From Negaprion brevirostris (taxonomy: Eukaryota), in NCBI GenBank assembly GCA_030324005.1, contig JARDVH010000124.1, forward strand, positions 25,723,028-25,787,027: 64,000 nucleotides of DNA. Reading direction: 5' to 3'. A model generated the notes under the pieces. That model worked only from the letters and a program-made list of their open reading frames with translations. It searched no databases and had not been told where the DNA came from. The position numbers and the translations under genes were made by a program. Below, piece after piece: positions 19,050-64,000 of the stretch (positions within the stretch are counted from its first letter, which is position 1; each line of letters opens with the position of its first letter).

Positions 19050-21700
19050 GTGGTGTATGGTGTGAACTTCAGAGCTCAAGGTCCAAGCCACAGATGGCGC
19101 AGCAACCAAAAGTGGAGCAATTACAATTGAGGATGCTCAACAAGCCAAAATTAGGCAGGCCTATGGTGCTAGGAAGGGGCAAAGGCACAGAATGATCTGG
19201 AACCAGGATGTTCATTTTAAAGTCAAAGCATTGCATGAATAGTAGCCAAAATAGGTCAGGAGGCACAAGGGTGATAGGTGAACAAAGCTTTACATGGGTT
19301 AAGCACAAAGGCAGCAGAATTTCAGATGATTTCAAGATGATGGAGGGTAGAATTTGGGGGATCAGTCAAGAGTGTAGTGGAATGGTTAAGTCTAGGGGTA
19401 CCAAAGGCATGAATGAGGGTTTTGCAACTGTTGACCTGAGACAGGGGAAAAGTAGATTATGGAAATTGGCCATCTTAGTCTAAGGATGAATACACAATCA
19501 GTAGCTCATTTTAGAATCACGTATGACACCAAGCCAGGGAACAACCTGGTTTAATCTCAGACTTGCCAGGGAGAGGGATGGAGTCAGTAGCTGGGGAACA
19601 GAGATCGTAGCAGAGACCAAAAAGAATGGTTTCTCAATATTTGATTGAAGGAAACATCCACTTATCCAGTAGTAGATGCTGGATAAGCCACCTGATAATT
19701 TTGCAACAATGGAGGCATTGAGAGAGATGGCAGTGTAATAGTTGGGTGTCATTAACATAGATGTGAAAACTAATGCTGTTTCTTCAGATTATGTCACATG
19801 TGGTTGAGAAATAATTGGGGTGGCGGCGGCGGCGGGAGATAGATCCATAGGGGATACTAGAGATTGTGGCACTGCAGCAAGAAAATAAGCCACTGCAAAA
19901 GGATATTCTGGTTACGATTAGTTGGATTAGAACAGAACCATGGTGAGTGCAGTTCCACTCAACTGGGTGACAGTGGAGCGATGTTGGAGGAAGATGGTGT
20001 GGTCAACAGTGTCAAAGGCTGCAGAGAGATTAAGAGGATGAGGAAAGATTTAACTTTCTCACAATCACATAGGATGCCACTTGTGACTTAAGAACAGTTT
20101 TTGTTACTGNNNNNNNNNNNNNNNNNNNNNNNNNNNNNNNNNNNNNNNNNNNNNNNNNNNNNNNNNNNNNNNNNNNNNNNNNNNNNNNNNNNNNNNNNNN
20201 NNNNNNNNNNNNNNNNNNNNNNNNNNNNNNNNNNNNNNNNNNNNNNNNNNNNNNNNNNNNNNNNNNNNNNNNNNNNNNNNNNNNNNNNNNNNNNNNNNNN
20301 NNNNNNNNNNNNNNNNNNNNNNNNNNNNNNNNNNNNNNNNNNNNNNNNNNNNNNNNNNNNNNNNNNNNNNNNNNNNNNNNNNNNNNNNNNNNNNNNNNNN
20401 NNNNNNNNNNNNNNNNNNNNNNNNNNNNNNNNNNNNNNNNNNNNNNNNNNNNNNNNNNNNNNNNNNNNNNNNNNNNNNNNNNNNNNNNNNNNNNNNNNNN
20501 NNNNNNNNNNNNNNNNNNNNNNNNNNNNNNNNNNNNNNNNNNNNNNNNNNNNNNNNNNNNNNNNNNNNNNNNNNNNNNNNNNNNNNNNNNNNNNNNNNNN
20601 NNNNNNNNNNNNNNNNNNNNNNNNNNNNNNNNNNNNNNNNNNNNNNNNNNNNNNNNNNNNNNNNNNNNNNNNNNNNNNNNNNNNNNNNNNNNNNNNNNNN
20701 NNNNNNNNNNNNNNNNNNNNNNNNNNNNNNNNNNNNNNNNNNNNNNNNNNNNNNNNNNNNNNNNNNNNNNNNNNNNNNNNNNNNNNNNNNNNNNNNNNNN
20801 NNNNNNNNNNNNNNNNNNNNNNNNNNNNNNNNNNNNNNNNNNNNNNNNNNNNNNNNNNNNNNNNNNNNNNNNNNNNNNNNNNNNNNNNNNNNNNNNNNNN
20901 NNNNNNNNNNNNNNNNNNNNNNNNNNNNNNCGCAGGAATGAAAGGAGATTAGGGAGGAAATTCCAGAGCTGAGGAAAGACATGCCACCAATGGTGGAGTA
21001 AAGAAAGCAAGGAATGAACCAAGGCTGGAGTTTGAGGAATGCAGAGCTCTCATGGACTGTAAGGTTAGAGAAGATTACAGAGATGGGAGACAAGCGGCGA
21101 TGGAGGAATTTCATCCAAGATTAGAATTCAATGTCAAGGTTATGAGGCAATGTAGGTTAGCAAACACAAGCTGATGCATGAATGAAATTTAGTCCAAGTT
21201 AAGCTATGAGCAGAGTTTTGGATGATATTATTAAGGATGGAAGACAGGCAAGCCTGGAAGTAATTAAAGTATAGGTGAAGGTTTCAGCTCCAGAATGGAC
21301 TGAGGTAAAACAGGTGATAATGAAGGTTGAAAGAAGGTAGCCTTTGACACAGAGAAGATATGGGATCAGAAGCTCAACTCTGCCCAGCAAGATTGTGAAT
21401 AGTCTGGTTCAGACTTGGACAGTGGCAGATAAGTGATTTGATTGCTTGGGAATGGTATTTGTGGAGGAGGATGAAGACTGTGGTTTTGATTTTCCCAACT
21501 TTTAATTAAAGGAGACTCAATGTCAGACAAGCAATCCAAAATCAGAGGTAGTGATAGAGTTGTGCTGGGTAATGTTCGCAAATATGTGGAATTTGACACC
21601 GCTTACGAACAGCATGTAGATGAGAAATAGGAGGTGAACAAAACTAAATAACTGGGAACTCAAAAGATTACAGAGCAGTGGCAAAAAGAGAACCCATTAC
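19050..21700 (-). mobile_element. Two decayed L2-like LINE fragments (gapped)
   Basis: Minus-strand degenerate RT motif (H-I-Y-V-N-D-T near 19745); the same RT segment recurs at about 19490 and 21355. Confidence 0.6.
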
Positions 21701-21979
21701 AGNNNNNNNNNNNNNNNNNNNNNNNNNNNNNNNNNNNNNNNNNNNNNNNNNNNNNNNNNNNNNNNNNNNNNNNNNNNNNNNNNNNNNNNNNNNNNNNNNN
21801 NNACAGGGGATTTGCTGACTTCAAGTGGATAGGTTTAAAAAGCGTGTGAAAGTTAATGATGGCAACCACAAAATATTATGACCTTTTCATGGAAAAACGG
21901 GGGAAATTACCCAAAGGTATGATTTATAGTCAAACTGTTTTGGCAGAAAAGTGTTTTAAAGTGCCTCTGTCACCCTATT

Positions 21980-22497
21980 AAAATATATTCCCTGGCAGTA
22001 GAAATGAGCATATTGATACTGTAATTATGGAAGTGTGATGAGATCCTGCAGCAATAGTTTAGGGAATTAGGTAGAAAGTTAAAAAGCAGGACCTCTAGAA
22101 TTGTAATCTCAGGATTACTCCCTGTGCCACAGGCTAGTGAGGCTAGGAATAGGAAGATAGTGCAGCTCAACATATGGCTAAACAGCTAGTGCAGGAGGGA
22201 GGATTTCAGATATCTGGACCACTGGGGTCTCTTCCAGGTCAGGTGGGACCTGTACAAGGACAGGTTGCATCTAAACTGGAAGGGCATAAATACTCTGGCC
22301 AGGAGGTTTGCTAATGTCACACAGGAGGATTTAAACTAGTTTGGCAGGGAGGGGATGGGAACCAAAAAAGGTGAATTAGCTGAAGGGGAATCAGCAAGAA
22401 GGGACAGTAAGACTCAAATAGCAGGCAAGGACAGTGGAGGGAATCTATGCATGGAGCCAGAGGAAATGGGCAAGGTATGAAATGAGTATTTTGCATC
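21980..22497 (+). mobile_element. CR1 ORF1 (esterase-type) fragment plus ORF2 piece
   Basis: Translations ISGLLPVP, W...RWDLYK.LHLNWKG; GAAATGAGTATTTTGCATCAGT (NEYFASV). Confidence 0.8.
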
Positions 22498-23618: not shown

Positions 23619-24716
23619 AAGGCCAAAAGTGGAGGCTGACTTGGAATGACTGGTGAAGATAGGAGTCTTGGAATCTGTCAACATTAGTGAATGGGCTACA
23701 CCATTAGTGCTAGTCATCAAAAAGGACGGATTCGTACAGATTTACAGGAGGCTTCAATCCAGTGCTGTGTGCAGAACAATACCCACTAGCCCACACTGAT
23801 GACTTTTTTGGCAGGAGGCTAACATTTTAGCAAAATTGATCTGAGCCAGGTATGCTGACAGATGAATGCGGACCAGATGTCGCAGGAACCTCTGNNNNNN
23901 NNNNNNNNNNNNNNNNNNNNNNNNNNNNNNNNNNNNNNNNNNNNNNNNNNNNNNNNNNNNNNNNNNNNNNNNNNNNNNNNNNNNNNNNNNNNNNNNNNNN
24001 NNNNNNNNNNNNNNNNNNNNNNNNNNNNNNNNNNNNNNNNNNNNNNNNNNNNNNNNNNNNNNNNNNNNNNNNNNNNNNNNNNNNNNNNNNNNNNNNNNNN
24101 NNNNNNNNNNNNNNNNNNNNNNNNNNNNNNNNNNNNNNNNNNNNNNNNNNNNNNNNNNNNNNNNNNNNNNNNNNNNNNNNNNNNNNNNNNNNNNNNNNNN
24201 NNNNNNNNNNNNNNNNNNNNNNNNNNNNNNNNNNNNNNNNNNNNNNNNNNNNNNNNNNNNNNNNNNNNNNNNNNNNNNNNNNNNNNNNNNNNNNNNNNNN
24301 NNNNNNNNNNNNNNNNNNNNNNNNNNNNNNNNNNNNNNNNNNNNNNNNNNNNNNNNNNNNNNNNNNNNNNNNNNNNNNNNNNNNNNNNNNNNNNNNNNNN
24401 NNNNNNNNNNNNNNNNNNNNNNNNNNNNNNNNNNNNNNNNNNNNNNNNNNNNNNNNNNNNNNNNNNNNNNNNNNNNNNNNNNNNNNNNNNNNNNNNNNNN
24501 NNNNNNNNNNNNNNNNNNNNNNNNNNNNNNNNNNNNNNNNNNNNNNNNNNNNNNNNNNNNNNNNNNNNNNNNNNNNNNNNNNNNNNNNNNNNNNNNNNNN
24601 NNNNNNNNNNNNNNNNNNNNNNNNNNNNNNNNNNNNNNNNNNNNNNNNNNNNNNNNNNNNNNNNNNNNNNNNNNNNNNNNNNNNNNNNNNNNNNNNNNNN
24701 NAAAAAATTTTTTAAA

Positions 24717-24924
24717 GCGGCATCTTGGCCTTTTGGCTAAGATGCAAATGAGATCAAACCTTGGAGGAGGAACTATGCCTACTTCAATCAGCTTGGGTCA
24801 TATAGATCAAGCCCAAGACAGGAGGTGAGAGCCCTGTCTTGTCAGCTTGGATTGGGAATATCTCAACTTGTTGATTTGGACTTGATTTGATTGAACTCAA
24901 ATAAAAAAAGACAAAAAAAAAAAA
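24717..24924 (+). mobile_element. Short poly(A)-tailed retroposon with U2 snRNA-derived head
   Basis: 24720-24743 GCATCTTGGCCTTTTGGCTAAGAT matches U2 nt 4-27 at 22/24, then a non-U2 structured body, AATAAA and an A-tail; inserted in Gypsy pol. Confidence 0.7.
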
Positions 24925-25019
24925 TTTGGTCTGCACTGTTGTATCCTACTACAAATGGACAAGCAGAATGTTTCGTTCAAACCATGAAACACACATTGAA
25001 AGCAACCAGGCAACAAGGT

Positions 25020-25330
25020 TCATAGAAAGAAATAGAAACCCTACAGTGCAGAAGGGAGCCATTTGGCCCATCAAATCTACACCGACAATAATTCCTATCC
25101 ATTTAACTCCACATATTTACCTTGCTAATCCCTCTAACCTATGCATCCTGGGACACCAAAGGGCAATTTAACATGGTAAATCAACCTAACCTGCACACGT
25201 TTGGACTGTGGGAGGAAACCCACGCAAACATAGGGAGAATATGCAAATTCCACACAGACAGTGACCCAAGCCAGGAATTGAACCCAGGTCCCTGGAGCTG
25301 AGAGGCAGCAATGCCAATCATTGTGCCACT
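25020..25330 (-). mobile_element. HE1/V-SINE-type SINE, near full length, inside Gypsy integrase
   Basis: Full reverse body ending ...GGAATTGAACCCAGGTCCCTGGAGCTGAGAGGCAGCAATGC (tRNA-like head). Confidence 0.92.
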
Positions 25331-26545
25331 ATTTGAAACAACTTTATCAATCCCTACTGATGTATTGCTCATTAAACTACTAAGATCTCTCCTGCATTAT
25401 TAATGAAAAGACAACTACATTCAGCACTTGACTTGTTGAAACCTCTGAAAAGAAAATAAATTGTTCAACAGGAACAACAAAATACAGATAGAACAGTTGG
25501 AAGTAAAGTGAAACATTGTGTCTTCCACCAAGGACAAGTGTTGGTCAGGAATTACTCCACAGGAGAGAAATGGGTTCCTGCCATGATCCTTGTGCAGATT
25601 GGATCTGTCTTGTATACCATTCAAACCAGAGACAATGTCATCTGGAGGAAGCATGCGGACCAGCTGTTGGTGGGAAGAACTGACCTGCCTATAATACAGA
25701 ATTTTGCCGTCATACAACAAAATCATATCTCATATCTTTGAGAGATCAGACAAAGCTTTTGGAATTTTGAATCAGCCTTTACTCACACCATATCAAGGAA
25801 GTCTGCCTCTCACAAGGCTGTGTACAGATTTACTGCATGATACATGGCATGCACAATTATATGTTTGCTTATCTTACAAATAATTTGCATATACCAATCA
25901 CAAATAGACATTTTCTCTGAAGTATAGTTAACCAGTTATAGCCTCTATATGGTTGTCTAATTACAATGATTAATTACTAATCAAGTACACCAACATGGTT
26001 ACATTATTCAAATATCCACACCTGATGTTATGGCTTGTGGTTATTGGAGTTCTCACCCTCTGCTCCTTGGTCAGTCTCTTTGTGCTGCCCATCTGCAGGT
26101 ATGGGAAGTGCAATGAAAAATCTTCACAGCAACTTCCCAGGGAATTGTGCTGTACTCAATTCACAGGGGAACTCTACTGCACTCAAAAATGTTAACCTCT
26201 TCAGCTGGAAATTGAATCTGGAAATCCGGATTCAACTGTACAAAGTCCTCAACGGAACCTTCCTGAAATTCTAACAGCGACAGATACTGTTGAGGAAGTC
26301 AATACCTCACCTTCAGACCAAGCACAGATTCAAACTCCACTACAACATTGACAGTGATCAAAGCAATCACTGATGATGATTGTACAAAGACGAAAATGCC
26401 AGAGGTTACAACTAGTACAAGCAGACAACACCAGAGGTTCGATGTTTTGAGAACGATGACTTCCAAACCGTCTTGACTTATTGATTGTTGATCATGTTAC
26501 ACTGCTCGAAATTGTTGGGGACATTCAATTTAAAGGGGGAAGAAA

Positions 26546-29274: not shown

Positions 29275-29307
29275 CTGGAGTGGGGACTGACAAAGGAATC
29301 GTGTGTA
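29275..29307 (-). CDS. ATE1: ATE1 exon 8 (33-nt exon)
   Basis: Minus strand reads ...gaatgcAG|TAC ACA CGA TTC CTT TGT CAG TCC CCA CTC CAG|GTaagc = YTRFLCQSPLQ, matching mammalian FTRFLCSSPLE, which directly follows exon 7. Phase 0, in frame with 62871-62999. Confidence 0.95.
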
Positions 29308-29837
29308 CTGCATTCACCAAATCGGCGTTAGAATGGGAAACAAAAGGGGAAAATAAATCAAGTTAATTTTTGTAGTGGTATAAAGTTATACTTTGTAATA
29401 ATGATTATACTAAATAATGGTCGCTCACTTAATAATCCAATCTTATAATTTCTTATATAAAACACATTATTACACAAGTCCAACTGTGTGTTATGTCCTG
29501 AATATTTTGTTAAAATTTCAAGAGTGTATATTTAACACTGTCTGTTAACAATTCATATTAATCATTCAATTAAGCACAACTCCCCACCCACTCCAGTAGT
29601 GGTGTGGTAAACATTTCTACGAAGAGGAAAATGTCAGGATAACTAGCTTGTCATGATGATATTATGTTCCATTTCAAGACAATTTACATCATTACATCAT
29701 GTTGTCAACCAAATTTGTTTTTTTAATGGTTTAGTGAACGGTTTTTCAGAAAGGCATGTGCTTTGAAAATGAATATCATAAACATGGATCCACAAGCACA
29801 CACACTAATTTAATGTGTTCTGACAACTAATGGAGTG

Positions 29838-30078: not shown

Positions 30079-31898
30079 AGATATAACCAGAAAGGGTTTA
30101 TTTTAAGAACACTACCAAGTTCTAACAAGTAAGCTTACTGAAAGACTTGGCAGATATTAAACCTGCACAGCAAAGCTGAAGTTTGCACTATTGAGATTTT
30201 CAATTTTACTTCAGGCCAATAACAGTCTGATATCTACAACAGTCTATATCTACAAGCGATCATGGACATGGAGAAAGTAACCCATTTTGGTGGGGTGTCT
30301 TCATTTGGTTCACTTTTGCTGTTAGCTGTTAAGGTCAATCCGACAAGTGCTGCACGTGAAACTGCCAAGTGACAAGGGTTTTATTTTTTGGCATTGGCCT
30401 CTGTTGCCAAGCTGCCATAGCCACTGGTCATTCACATCAACCCACAGATGTCATCATTTCCCTCTTCTGCCAGCTAGTGACTCTCAGGCGCATGTTCAGA
30501 GCCTCATGCCACGCTTGCAAGCAAAAATGAAGCAGAGCTTTAGGCACTGCACTTGTTATCTGGTCCCGATTACCTCATCGTACAGGAGGTCCTCGAGTAT
30601 GTGATTGTTCCAGTCTTCTGGCATGCCCAATTCATTGTAGCTGCCTCTGTTTGATTAGTGCAAACACACTTGCAAACTCTGCCTTTGGGAAGACTGCCAC
30701 ATTCATGATTTTGTCCAGCTATATATGACATACCCAGAATGCATATAATGCTCACAGCAGTAAATAAATGAGCATTCCATTATAGTAGAACAGGTTGGTG
30801 GAGAAAAAGTATGCTTCACTGCTGCAACATTTGACGTGCATCACTGATGTCAAAGGTGAAGTCAAATATCTTGCTCACTACATCAAGCTGGAACAATCAA
30901 ATATTTAAATAGTTCATCACTGGACAGACCTACACATTTCAAGGCAGAAACTGCAAGACTGATCCCAGTGCAGACGTCATGAAGTGTACGTAGGGGACAC
31001 AGAATCAAGGTTGCAACGTGTGGCCCTAAATCCAACCTTTACAAGTATTGATCATAGTATACAGCAATGGGAAAACATCATAATTGCTGCCCAATTATCC
31101 CAGTGCCTGAAAATATGATTTGGGTTGCAGAGCCAGTGGTAGTGTCTTTTTTGACGGATGCAAGGACAGGAATGGTTAATTAGCTTTAAAAATAAGTCCT
31201 CCATTGTCTAGAGACACATCATTTAGCTAGCATCTGTTAAACTATGGCCAACAATATACACATTCTCATTATCACCCTAAGTTTTCACAAAAAACTTTGG
31301 GCCCAGGTTTGGAGAACAGCAGTACACGACTTTGAATGACCCAGTGGCACATTGTTATATTTTTGGTTTCTGAAGCCTCTTGTTTTGTCAGAACTGAATC
31401 GATCAACTGCCATGACATTTAAAAAGTAACATGCAAAATATGAGACAGTGAGCAATCTAAATTTAATCTAACTAGAAAAATTTCCTGCAATGATTTGAGA
31501 GGCATTGGAAATTTGAATTCCCACTTATTCTAATGTTGGATCTGTCAACAGCTCACTGAAGAGTCTAATTTTATCTAAGGTATTTATGCAGCCAGAACAT
31601 TTTGTTTTATACTTTGCAGATTAAAAGTCAGTTAGAGTAAGGAACTCTCCTGAGTTTTATCGACAATGATATGTTATTGGTGTGTTACAATAAATTGGGC
31701 CAGTATCAAAAGAGAGTCAGGTCAAACTGCATTATGCAAACATAGAAGCAGATTACCCCCACATTGATTAAAAATAATTATTTGCAAATTAATTTGGTGT
31801 GACTCTCCATTATCTGCCGAGTTTACATTTTTAGCGTGAATATCTCCTTCTTTAGAATGAACGGTAGAAGTTTAATTGAAGGTTGTATTAGGAAATAA

Positions 31899-62870: not shown

Positions 62871-62999
62871 CTCTGATTCACTACATTCATCAGGTGAATC
62901 CTGGTGCACTGCCATCTGATACTTGGCATACAAAGCTGCTGATTGGTTAAAGGATTCAGTGAAATCTGGGTCATCGGAGGAAACCGGCACTAGTTTCAC
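62871..62999 (-). CDS. ATE1: ATE1 (arginyl-tRNA--protein transferase 1) mutually exclusive exon 7, 'VRLVP' type; apparently the downstream alternative (7b by genomic order)
   Basis: Minus strand reads ...ctgaAG|GTG AAA CTA GTG CCG...TCA GAG|GTaaaa. It is exactly 129 nt, phase 0/0, and translates VKLVPVSSDDPDFTESFNQSAALYAKYQMAVHQDSPDECSESE, matching the mammalian ATE1 129-nt alternative exon (VRLVPVSFEDPEFKSSFSQSFSLYVKYQVAIHQDPPDECGKTE, recalled). No second exon-7 copy was seen between it and exon 8. Confidence 0.96.
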
Positions 63000-63101
63000 C
63001 TTCAGCGTAGGAGATCCACGTAAATTTGCAAAGTAAGCAAATAATTGAAAACATTTTCAAAATAGAAAATAAACTTCAAGATTTACCAGATGGTTTTACC
63101 A

Positions 63102-63140
63102 CTGAAGGTAAGAATAGTGCTGGTTCTCCTCCATATCCAG
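63102..63140 (-). promoter_or_regulatory. Intronic splicing-regulatory element complementary to the exon 7 acceptor/5' end (R3-like element)
   Basis: Plus 63102-63125 CTGAAGGTAAGAATAGTGCTGGTT vs transcript acceptor 63005-62982 CTGAAGGTGAAACTAGTGCCGGTT gives 20 Watson-Crick + 1 G-U pairs out of 24, extendable through TCCTCC...CCAG. Confidence 0.8.
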
Positions 63141-63539
63141 TTCAAAAACCCACTCAAATTTATCCTATTCCTATCACCATCAAATAATCTGAACGAATTT
63201 GTATGAGCTAATACATGTGTTTTTCTTCCCACACCCGCTTTGGCAAGAACCAATCTTTTAATTTGTACCCAATGTTACACCAAATCGAGATGATTTCACA
63301 TCGGCCAAGTTTCTAAGCTACTAACAAACCCACACGTTTGCACTTTTCAAATTGACGCCAAATCAGGTTGCTAGGTGGGGCACTCTAATCTGCCTGGCTT
63401 TTCCCTTGTGTGCAACTCACTGCTTGTTGACAAAGTAGCAAAACAAAATTGAGCAAAAGATCATAATGAGACATTTTGCTTCAAATTTTAAAAACATCCA
63501 TTAGTTCCAATGAGTATTTTAGGGCATATTTAAAGCACA

Positions 63540-63835
63540 AGTTTAGCATTACCAATGATTTTTAGACGGGCTTTGGGAGAAAGCTATTCGAGACTTCTTT
63601 CATGGAAGTTTTAGATTAATCATACCTTACTAACAACTCCCTGACAAGGAAGCAATCTTTCCCTATTTACCCTATCAATTACCTTCACAATTTAAAAAAA
63701 CTCCATGAATCTCCTCTTAGCCTTTTCTGTGCCAGTGGAAATATTTACAGTACTGTACAATGTACACAGTTTAAATGCCCTTTCTATAATCGGAGTTCTA
63801 GAAACTAGACATCGTCTTCAAAGTTCAGCTTATAT
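63540..63835 (-). mobile_element. Old CR1 3' remnant in the intron upstream of exon 7
   Basis: CCCTATTTACCCTATCAATTACCTTCACAATTT and TTCTATAATCGGAGTTCTAGAAACT resemble the reversed CR1 RT end. Confidence 0.45.
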
Positions 63836-64000
63836 ATCTTGCCAGGATGATATCCCGCTGCAGTGTCAATCCAGCTGCTCAGTGGGACTTAATTTTAGCA
63901 TTGCTTGGACGAGACCACAAAAATCTTTTATTTTTAAGTATAAATTAAAATGCACATAGCTACGAAAGATTTTTAGTTTTGTGTATTTCTAAACTGGAGA

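Follow-up and report, generated by a model that had tools for sequence, protein, structure and literature searches.

Exons 7a and 7b of human ATE1 are a well-dissected case of mutually exclusive splicing through competing RNA helices. Two elements that overlap splice sites (i.e. R1 and R4) compete for a single element, R3, and R2–R5 pairing sets the ratio of the two exons, a mechanism established by mutagenesis and antisense data (PMC7797038). R1 and R4 are described as conserved across vertebrates, and the authors state in their Discussion that it is impossible to trace where R1, R3 and R4 came from (PMC7797038). The word 'shark' is absent from the main text of Kalinina et al. (PMC7797038) and from the available portion of its preprint version. 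The locus described here raises the question of whether a cartilaginous fish carries the same module, in what form and of what age.

The window is the whole stretch of DNA analysed, i.e. 64,000 nt of Negaprion brevirostris (GCA_030324005.1, contig JARDVH010000124.1, positions 25,723,028–25,787,027). Positions above 64,000 carry the window numbering on into the adjoining assembly sequence (G000:C124), and a slash in a motif marks an exon boundary.

Two exons 7 in the shark ATE1 gene

The gene lies on the minus strand with the following parts.

73913, minus strand: end of exon 6, beyond the window end; the 6–7a intron is 9,471 nt long
64313–64441 (G000:C124:25787340-25787468), minus strand: exon 7a, 129 nt, outside the window, 1,313 nt upstream of 7b
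63000–64000, minus strand: in-window part of the 7a–7b intron, which is 1,313 nt long as a whole
62871–62999, minus strand: ATE1 exon 7b, 129 nt, acceptor AAG/GTG, donor GAG/GTAAAA; contigs from all four shark runs examined join it to exons 6 and 8
29275–29307, minus strand: ATE1 exon 8, 33 nt, matching loose ends of spliced contigs

The peptide encoded by the in-window 129-nt exon has human isoform ATE1-2 as its sole PDB match (residues 273–315, E = 1e-13) and matches ATE1 database entries of several sharks at 100% identity. Since ATE1-2 is the 7b isoform (PMC7797038), this exon is shark ATE1 exon 7b; a Pfam search with the lone exon gave ATE_C at E = 0.14 only. The switch proposed for this locus calls for a second exon 7 upstream, and exon 7a is indeed found there at a distance of 1,313 nt. 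Both exons have 129 nt and GT-AG sites and lie 1.3 kb apart, with 55% nucleotide and 39.5% amino-acid identity between them. The pyrimidine tract of 7b is weak (59% pyrimidine at −20..−4 versus 88% in 7a). The 7b–8 intron extends over 33,563 nt.

Other parts of the gene show features of their own. In the intron after exon 8, GC content is very low at 20001–22000 (22%) and 24001–26000 (26%), and these stretches are probably simple repeats. Two ATE1 models of Scyliorhinus torazame (P0007 and P0020) run from exon 8 into a sequence with what we take to be a reverse transcriptase motif; this tail is probably an exonised retroelement or a model error.

Steric hindrance, frameshift with nonsense-mediated decay and spliceosome incompatibility have been named as alternative routes to exclusivity (PMC7797038). 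All three were rejected for the shark gene: the 7a–7b intron is 1,313 nt long (steric hindrance), exons 7a and 7b both have 129 nt (frameshift) and the sites are all GT-AG (U2/U12 incompatibility).

Exon usage was inspected in spliced contigs of other sharks. None of the 24 runs listed for the stretch is recorded as RNA and five were guessed to be so; the four that were used come from four organisms and four studies, all sharks other than the window's own organism. The contigs cover the two exons only, and their loose ends, compared by eye, correspond to the 3′ end of exon 6 and the 5′ end of exon 8. Exon 6 is joined to 7a in 4/4 runs and to 7b in 4/4, exon 7b is joined to exon 8 in 4/4, and 7a to exon 8 in three of the four. 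A 7a–7b joint appears in 0/4 runs at the contig level, where rare forms are dropped, so that rare double-inclusion forms are invisible here. The exclusive exon-7 use expected in shark RNA thus takes the form of a contig-level two-path bubble in all four runs, with the 7a–exon 8 side absent from one. Contig depths of 7a and 7b look similar and are given here as depths, not as expression values.

Gene models in databases count against strict exclusivity. Models that contain both 7a and 7b make up 14 of the 27 exon-7b matches and come from cartilaginous fish (sharks, rays and chimaera). Beyond sharks, both motifs occur in 141 of 274 vertebrate proteins longer than 300 aa, a set biased by the double-exon query. 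Such models are therefore not shark-specific.

One intronic element complementary to two acceptors

The sequence-only reading proposed that plus-strand 63102–63125 pairs without gaps with the transcript at 63005–62982 across a 96-nt loop. Recomputation returns this 24-nt duplex (20 Watson–Crick pairs, one G–U pair and three mismatches) and a loop of 96 nt. For the reverse complement of 62950–63160 (211 nt) the folding energy is −70.9 kcal/mol (z = −6.95), a value reached by none of 200 shuffles. Burial of the 7b acceptor is borne out by the predicted structure. The claimed exon depth (~30 nt) is not, as the predicted helix is longer and runs from −8 to exon +48 with 45 pairs and an energy of −56.7 kcal/mol. 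The opposite strand of this region folds equally well (z = −6.92), so that folding alone identifies an inverted repeat rather than the strand that uses it. The elements are as follows.

63099–63155, minus strand: R3-like docking element, 57 nt, located between 7a and 7b; it complements the acceptor and the beginning of each exon 7
64393–64451, minus strand: selector a (R1-like), from −10 at the 7a acceptor to +49 in the exon; predicted to form 46 pairs with R3 (38 exonic)
62952–63007, minus strand: selector b (R4-like), from −8 at the 7b acceptor to +48 in the exon; predicted to form 39 Watson–Crick and 6 G–U pairs with R3 (45 in all, 37 exonic)
63006–63101, minus strand: 96-nt loop of the R3–7b hairpin, containing the weak 7b pyrimidine tract

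Both the pairing of R3 with the 7a acceptor (the R1R3 counterpart) and the depth of exon pairing had been missed in the first reading. The R3–7a helix has a predicted energy of −54.7 kcal/mol. To find partners, acceptor probes (−10..+45) were run against all 4,398 N-free 60-nt segments from exon 6 to exon 8. Segment 63152–63093 ranks first for the 7a probe (−52.9; runner-up −43.8; mean −19.6 over the 4,398 segments) and again first for the 7b probe (−50.3; runner-up −41.1, same 4,398), and the best partners of five other ATE1 acceptors within 1.5 kb reach only −22.6 to −36.1. In genome DNA the R3 element has a single match, and Rfam has no family for it at gathering level (one chance match, E = 0.19).

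The two helices draw on the same bases. As many as 37 R3 bases are common to the 7a and 7b pair maps, so the full R3–7a and R3–7b helices cannot coexist. Pairing is ~80% exonic, reaches +49 and leaves the pyrimidine tracts free. For the distal 33 nt of R3, pairing is matched by 4/1,000 shuffles with 7a and 0/1,000 with 7b, and by 0/902 natural intron 33-mers for either exon. The selectors are alike (both CTGAAG/GTGA..CTAGTG), with the likeness mostly exonic, and both overlap 3′ splice sites; at +16..+48, exons 7a and 7b have just 14/33 bases in common.

Partition-function snapshots predict a handover between the two acceptors. Before 7b is made, the R3 core is with 7a at p of about 1; in the transcript including 7b, the 3′ two-thirds of R3 pairs with 7b (p of about 1) and 7a retains the 5′ part (0.94–0.99). 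These are equilibrium predictions on 1.4–1.6 kb, unreliable at such length and only suggestive.

Our results suggest the following working model. At any one time R3 would pair with one of the two exons, over its acceptor and first ~48 bases, and hide it, and the other exon would be spliced in. Transcribed 1.3 kb after 7a, R3 is predicted to pair first with the 7a acceptor; about 100 nt later 7b would emerge, and the 3′ two-thirds of R3 could switch to the local 7b hairpin. The 5′ end of R3 would remain on 7a +33..+42, forming a branch-migration junction. Transcripts that stay in the R3:7a state would use exon 7b, and those that switch would use exon 7a. The 7a/7b ratio would then depend on folding kinetics and on the helix energies, which are nearly equal (−54.7 and −56.7 kcal/mol). 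Because one docking site can hide one acceptor only, double skipping and double inclusion would both be disfavoured.

Conservation, age and competing explanations

We examined conservation at two distances. Among sharks, it could be followed in four DNA runs of other sharks, out of the 24 listed. In one of them (X16), R3 has 3 changes in 57 nt versus 99 in 1,751 overall among the rows listed (40 of 171), with the differences taken as complete up to L001:1809 as inferred from row order. This indicates no excess conservation of R3 among sharks, at low power. Among the same rows, the three R3 changes are one at an unpaired base, one that turns a 7b G–U pair into G–C and one that breaks a terminal pair. 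At 7b −7 and +15 (window positions 63006 and 62985; L001:1657 and 1636), 4/4 other shark runs share letters that break predicted R3–7b pairs. The window genome's own letters at +15 (synonymous) and −7 each add a predicted pair, and the 7a/7b balance may therefore vary among sharks.

At the larger distance, a metagenome scan for the orthologous locus confirmed 1 of 104 pattern matches (L013); 0/12 pattern matches in a viral scan and 0/15 in a prokaryote-genome scan were confirmed. L013 contains a teleost-type exon 7b, with 37 of 43 residues identical to teleost proteins. The best partner of its 7b probe is an upstream element at ~687–706, some 340 nt before the exon (−46.3 versus −36.5 for the next of 780 segments). 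In the ungapped −7..+13 register, 18/20 pairs are kept in the shark and 19/20 in L013. Between the two core duplexes, positions −7 and −6 are changed on both sides, and +1 and +3 switch between G–C and G–U by a change on one side. Exchanging the elements gives unequal results: L013 R3 keeps only 16/20 pairs on shark 7b, and shark R3 still keeps 18/20 on the L013 exon. L013 R3 also forms 18/20 pairs on shark 7a (L013's own 7a lies off the record). The basis for covariation is thus one distant locus and two pairs.

Direct comparisons of the elements themselves give no signal. An R3–R3 alignment between shark and L013 matches 14/18 bases and is not significant (177/1,000 shuffles), a global MAFFT alignment of the two introns does not pair the two R3 elements, and the distal extension of R3 is not above chance in L013 (589/1,000). 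Since R3–R3 similarity is insignificant, the two elements may conceivably have arisen by convergence.

The first codons of the exons show a further pattern. In codons 1–5 the same codon is used wherever the residue is the same, both between shark and L013 7b (4/4) and between 7a and 7b (3/3); in codons 17–43, for comparison, this holds at 8/18 and 7/11, respectively. These small numbers hint at constraint by pairing or by the splice site.

On the plus strand of R3, positions 63105–63113 read AAG/GTAAGA, which resembles the splice-donor consensus in antisense orientation. L013 lacks this word, which probably results from complementarity to AAG/GTGA.

Taken together, the layout, pairing of both acceptors through the same bases and the core duplex in L013 support the earlier reading of this stem as an R3–R4 module in a cartilaginous fish. 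We regard the shark element as a putative functional orthologue of the human R1/R3/R4 switch, with a probability of about 0.85 as judged from sequence and predicted structure. Its orthology to the human module would follow from position and target. The suggestion that the mechanism is at least as old as jawed vertebrates also gains support, because the shark and the teleost-type locus have the same core duplex, with compensatory changes; this would place the module at the jawed-vertebrate ancestor, before sharks and bony fish split. What is new here is the proposed age of the module and its unusually long, exon-deep form.

A different explanation would have R3 act mainly in a local hairpin that represses the 7b acceptor, or as an element that biases exon choice, with exclusivity provided by proteins (e.g. 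of DZF type) or by splice-site strength, and with the match to 7a due only to homology between 7a and 7b. The weak pyrimidine tract of 7b and the capture of the R3 core by the local 7b hairpin at equilibrium (p of about 1) would fit a repressor, and depletion of ZFR and ILF3 alters ATE1 double inclusion in human cells according to the available portion of 10.1101/2022.06.15.495552. Homology is a poor account of the 7a match, however: with only those 14 of 33 bases in common at +16..+48, R3 pairs beyond chance with both exons, it aligns with each of them at a score of 42 when the exons align with each other at 30, and at +5 it fits 7a only. Moreover, splicing is altered in the human R1 mutant (PMC7797038). 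We consider this explanation improbable.

Even less credible, in our view, is a neutral R3 that plays no part in ATE1 splicing, a relic such as a splice donor of the antisense strand or a decayed inverted copy of an exon start. Equal folding of both strands, the lack of excess R3 conservation among sharks (among the rows listed) and the consensus-like donor at 63105–63113 are all compatible with such a relic. Against it, L013 retains the core duplex with two-sided changes where other intron similarity is undetected, and the same layout is functional in human. As for an antisense donor, the donor-like word is missing from L013 and none of the spliced contigs used covers R3. A competing-helix switch with R3 as its docking site thus remains the preferred reading.

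Origin of the docking site and comparison with known systems

The long, exon-deep shark form offers a handle on whether a docking site originates as an inverted copy of an exon or by duplication of a hairpin arm, and it predicts RNA-pairing constraint on coding positions in both exons. The plus strand of R3 can be aligned with either exon between acceptor −6 and about +42; each alignment scores 42 (0/1,000 shuffles), above that of 7a with 7b, and the translation of this strand gives VRIV...QFK, where 7a has VRLV...QFK. As its pairing is mostly exonic, reaches +49 and exceeds chance, R3 resembles an inverted copy of an exon start. The same alignment pattern would be expected if selection had favoured pairing with both exons. 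No similarity is seen between R3 and the exons beyond about +48, or between R3 and the single exon 7 of the paralogue described below (87/1,000).

We tentatively propose, as a possibility that we hold to be somewhat doubtful, that R3 arose when the exon-7 acceptor and first ~16 codons were duplicated in inverted orientation, and that what survives is a remnant of this copy. The exon would then be the source of its own docking site, which would have originated during or close to the event that gave rise to 7a and 7b and would have imposed exclusivity ever since. The ancestral form would be the long one that persists in sharks, a branch-migration switch that operates on coding sequence with ~46 pairs and no R2–R5 helix, and bony vertebrates would have shortened it.

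A second ATE1-like gene, ~69% identical in the catalytic exon, lies on the plus strand at G000:C160:~7567500-7594700 (L006–L012), and its relatives among the 15 best matches are all from sharks, rays and chimaera. Its single exon 7 is nearer to 7a (44–49%) than to 7b (35–37%) and has a plain pyrimidine-rich acceptor. For this acceptor we found no specific partner and no ancestral hairpin, the best partners being distant G/U-rich repeat-like stretches in a region with 1,937 N. This ties the docking site to the duplicated exon state and makes the paralogue usable as an internal outgroup. The gene is possibly an ohnologue lost in bony vertebrates; nothing on it stood out among the papers listed.

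The literature search found no shark ATE1 structure, with subscription papers and fish alignments possibly held in the Kalinina supplement (Figs S1 and S11) outside its scope. Nor did it find an inverted-duplication origin of a docking site at mutually exclusive exons, again with subscription papers outside its scope. Its scope included parts of PMC10790352, PMC11802352, PMC12519161 (reference list) and PMC4174434 (supplement).

No R2–R5-like helix rises above the null in the shark by blastn-short, ungapped helices or bulged duplexes near exon 8. The best ungapped helix is −22.5 versus null bests of −19.9 to −34.9 (seven intron-6 pieces), and bulged duplexes to the last 4.2 kb reach −26.7 at best versus a null minimum of −28.7, a search that a weak helix would escape without conservation data. 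Two minus-strand stretches within 1 kb of exon 8, at 29575–29601 (−26.7 kcal/mol) and 30263–30283 (−24.9 kcal/mol), pair with parts of R3 at chance level. Among 129 segments, the pairing of the R3 3′ part with 29601–29575 falls near the 1st percentile of the null, and we treated it as chance.

Compared with human ATE1, the shark has the same gene, the same two 129-nt exons and a docking element within the 7a–7b intron, near 7b and ~1 kb from 7a, complementary to both 3′ splice sites. Table 1 of PMC8052449 gives 17 nt with a spread of 51 nt for human R3R4 and 13 nt with a spread of 952 nt for R1R3; the shark spreads are 96 and about 1,340 nt, and the layouts match at this level. The helices differ in form. 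Those of human (13 and 17 nt) lie immediately upstream of the exons and contact the polypyrimidine tracts (PMC7797038; PMC8052449, Table 1), whereas the shark duplexes have ~46 pairs, 37–38 of them exonic, and leave the tracts untouched. The human helices could themselves extend into the exons, because the catalogue of Kalmykova et al., in its available portion, stretched introns just 10 nt into exons (PMC8052449).

Docking site/selector systems in insects (i.e. Dscam1, 14-3-3zeta, Mhc and srp), for which duplication of one hairpin arm is the proposed origin in the accessible text of PMC6071210, resemble the shark locus in having a single docking site and several competing selectors copied from one another. 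In the Dscam model, as far as that text goes, pairing works in favour of the selected exon and loops out competitors, whereas the paired exon is predicted to be hidden in shark ATE1. Because the shark selectors are mostly coding, an inverted exon copy fits them as well as an intronic hairpin does. Pairing of ISRE1 with ISRE2 at SCN-alpha exons 5a/5b provides an RNA structure at mutually exclusive exons that reaches from human to elephant shark (PMC12772994, preprint, available portion). As described there, the structure consists of one helix within the intron; it alters the ratio and, unlike the ATE1 helices, neither competes nor enforces exclusivity. With this precedent, the age of the shark ATE1 switch is less surprising.
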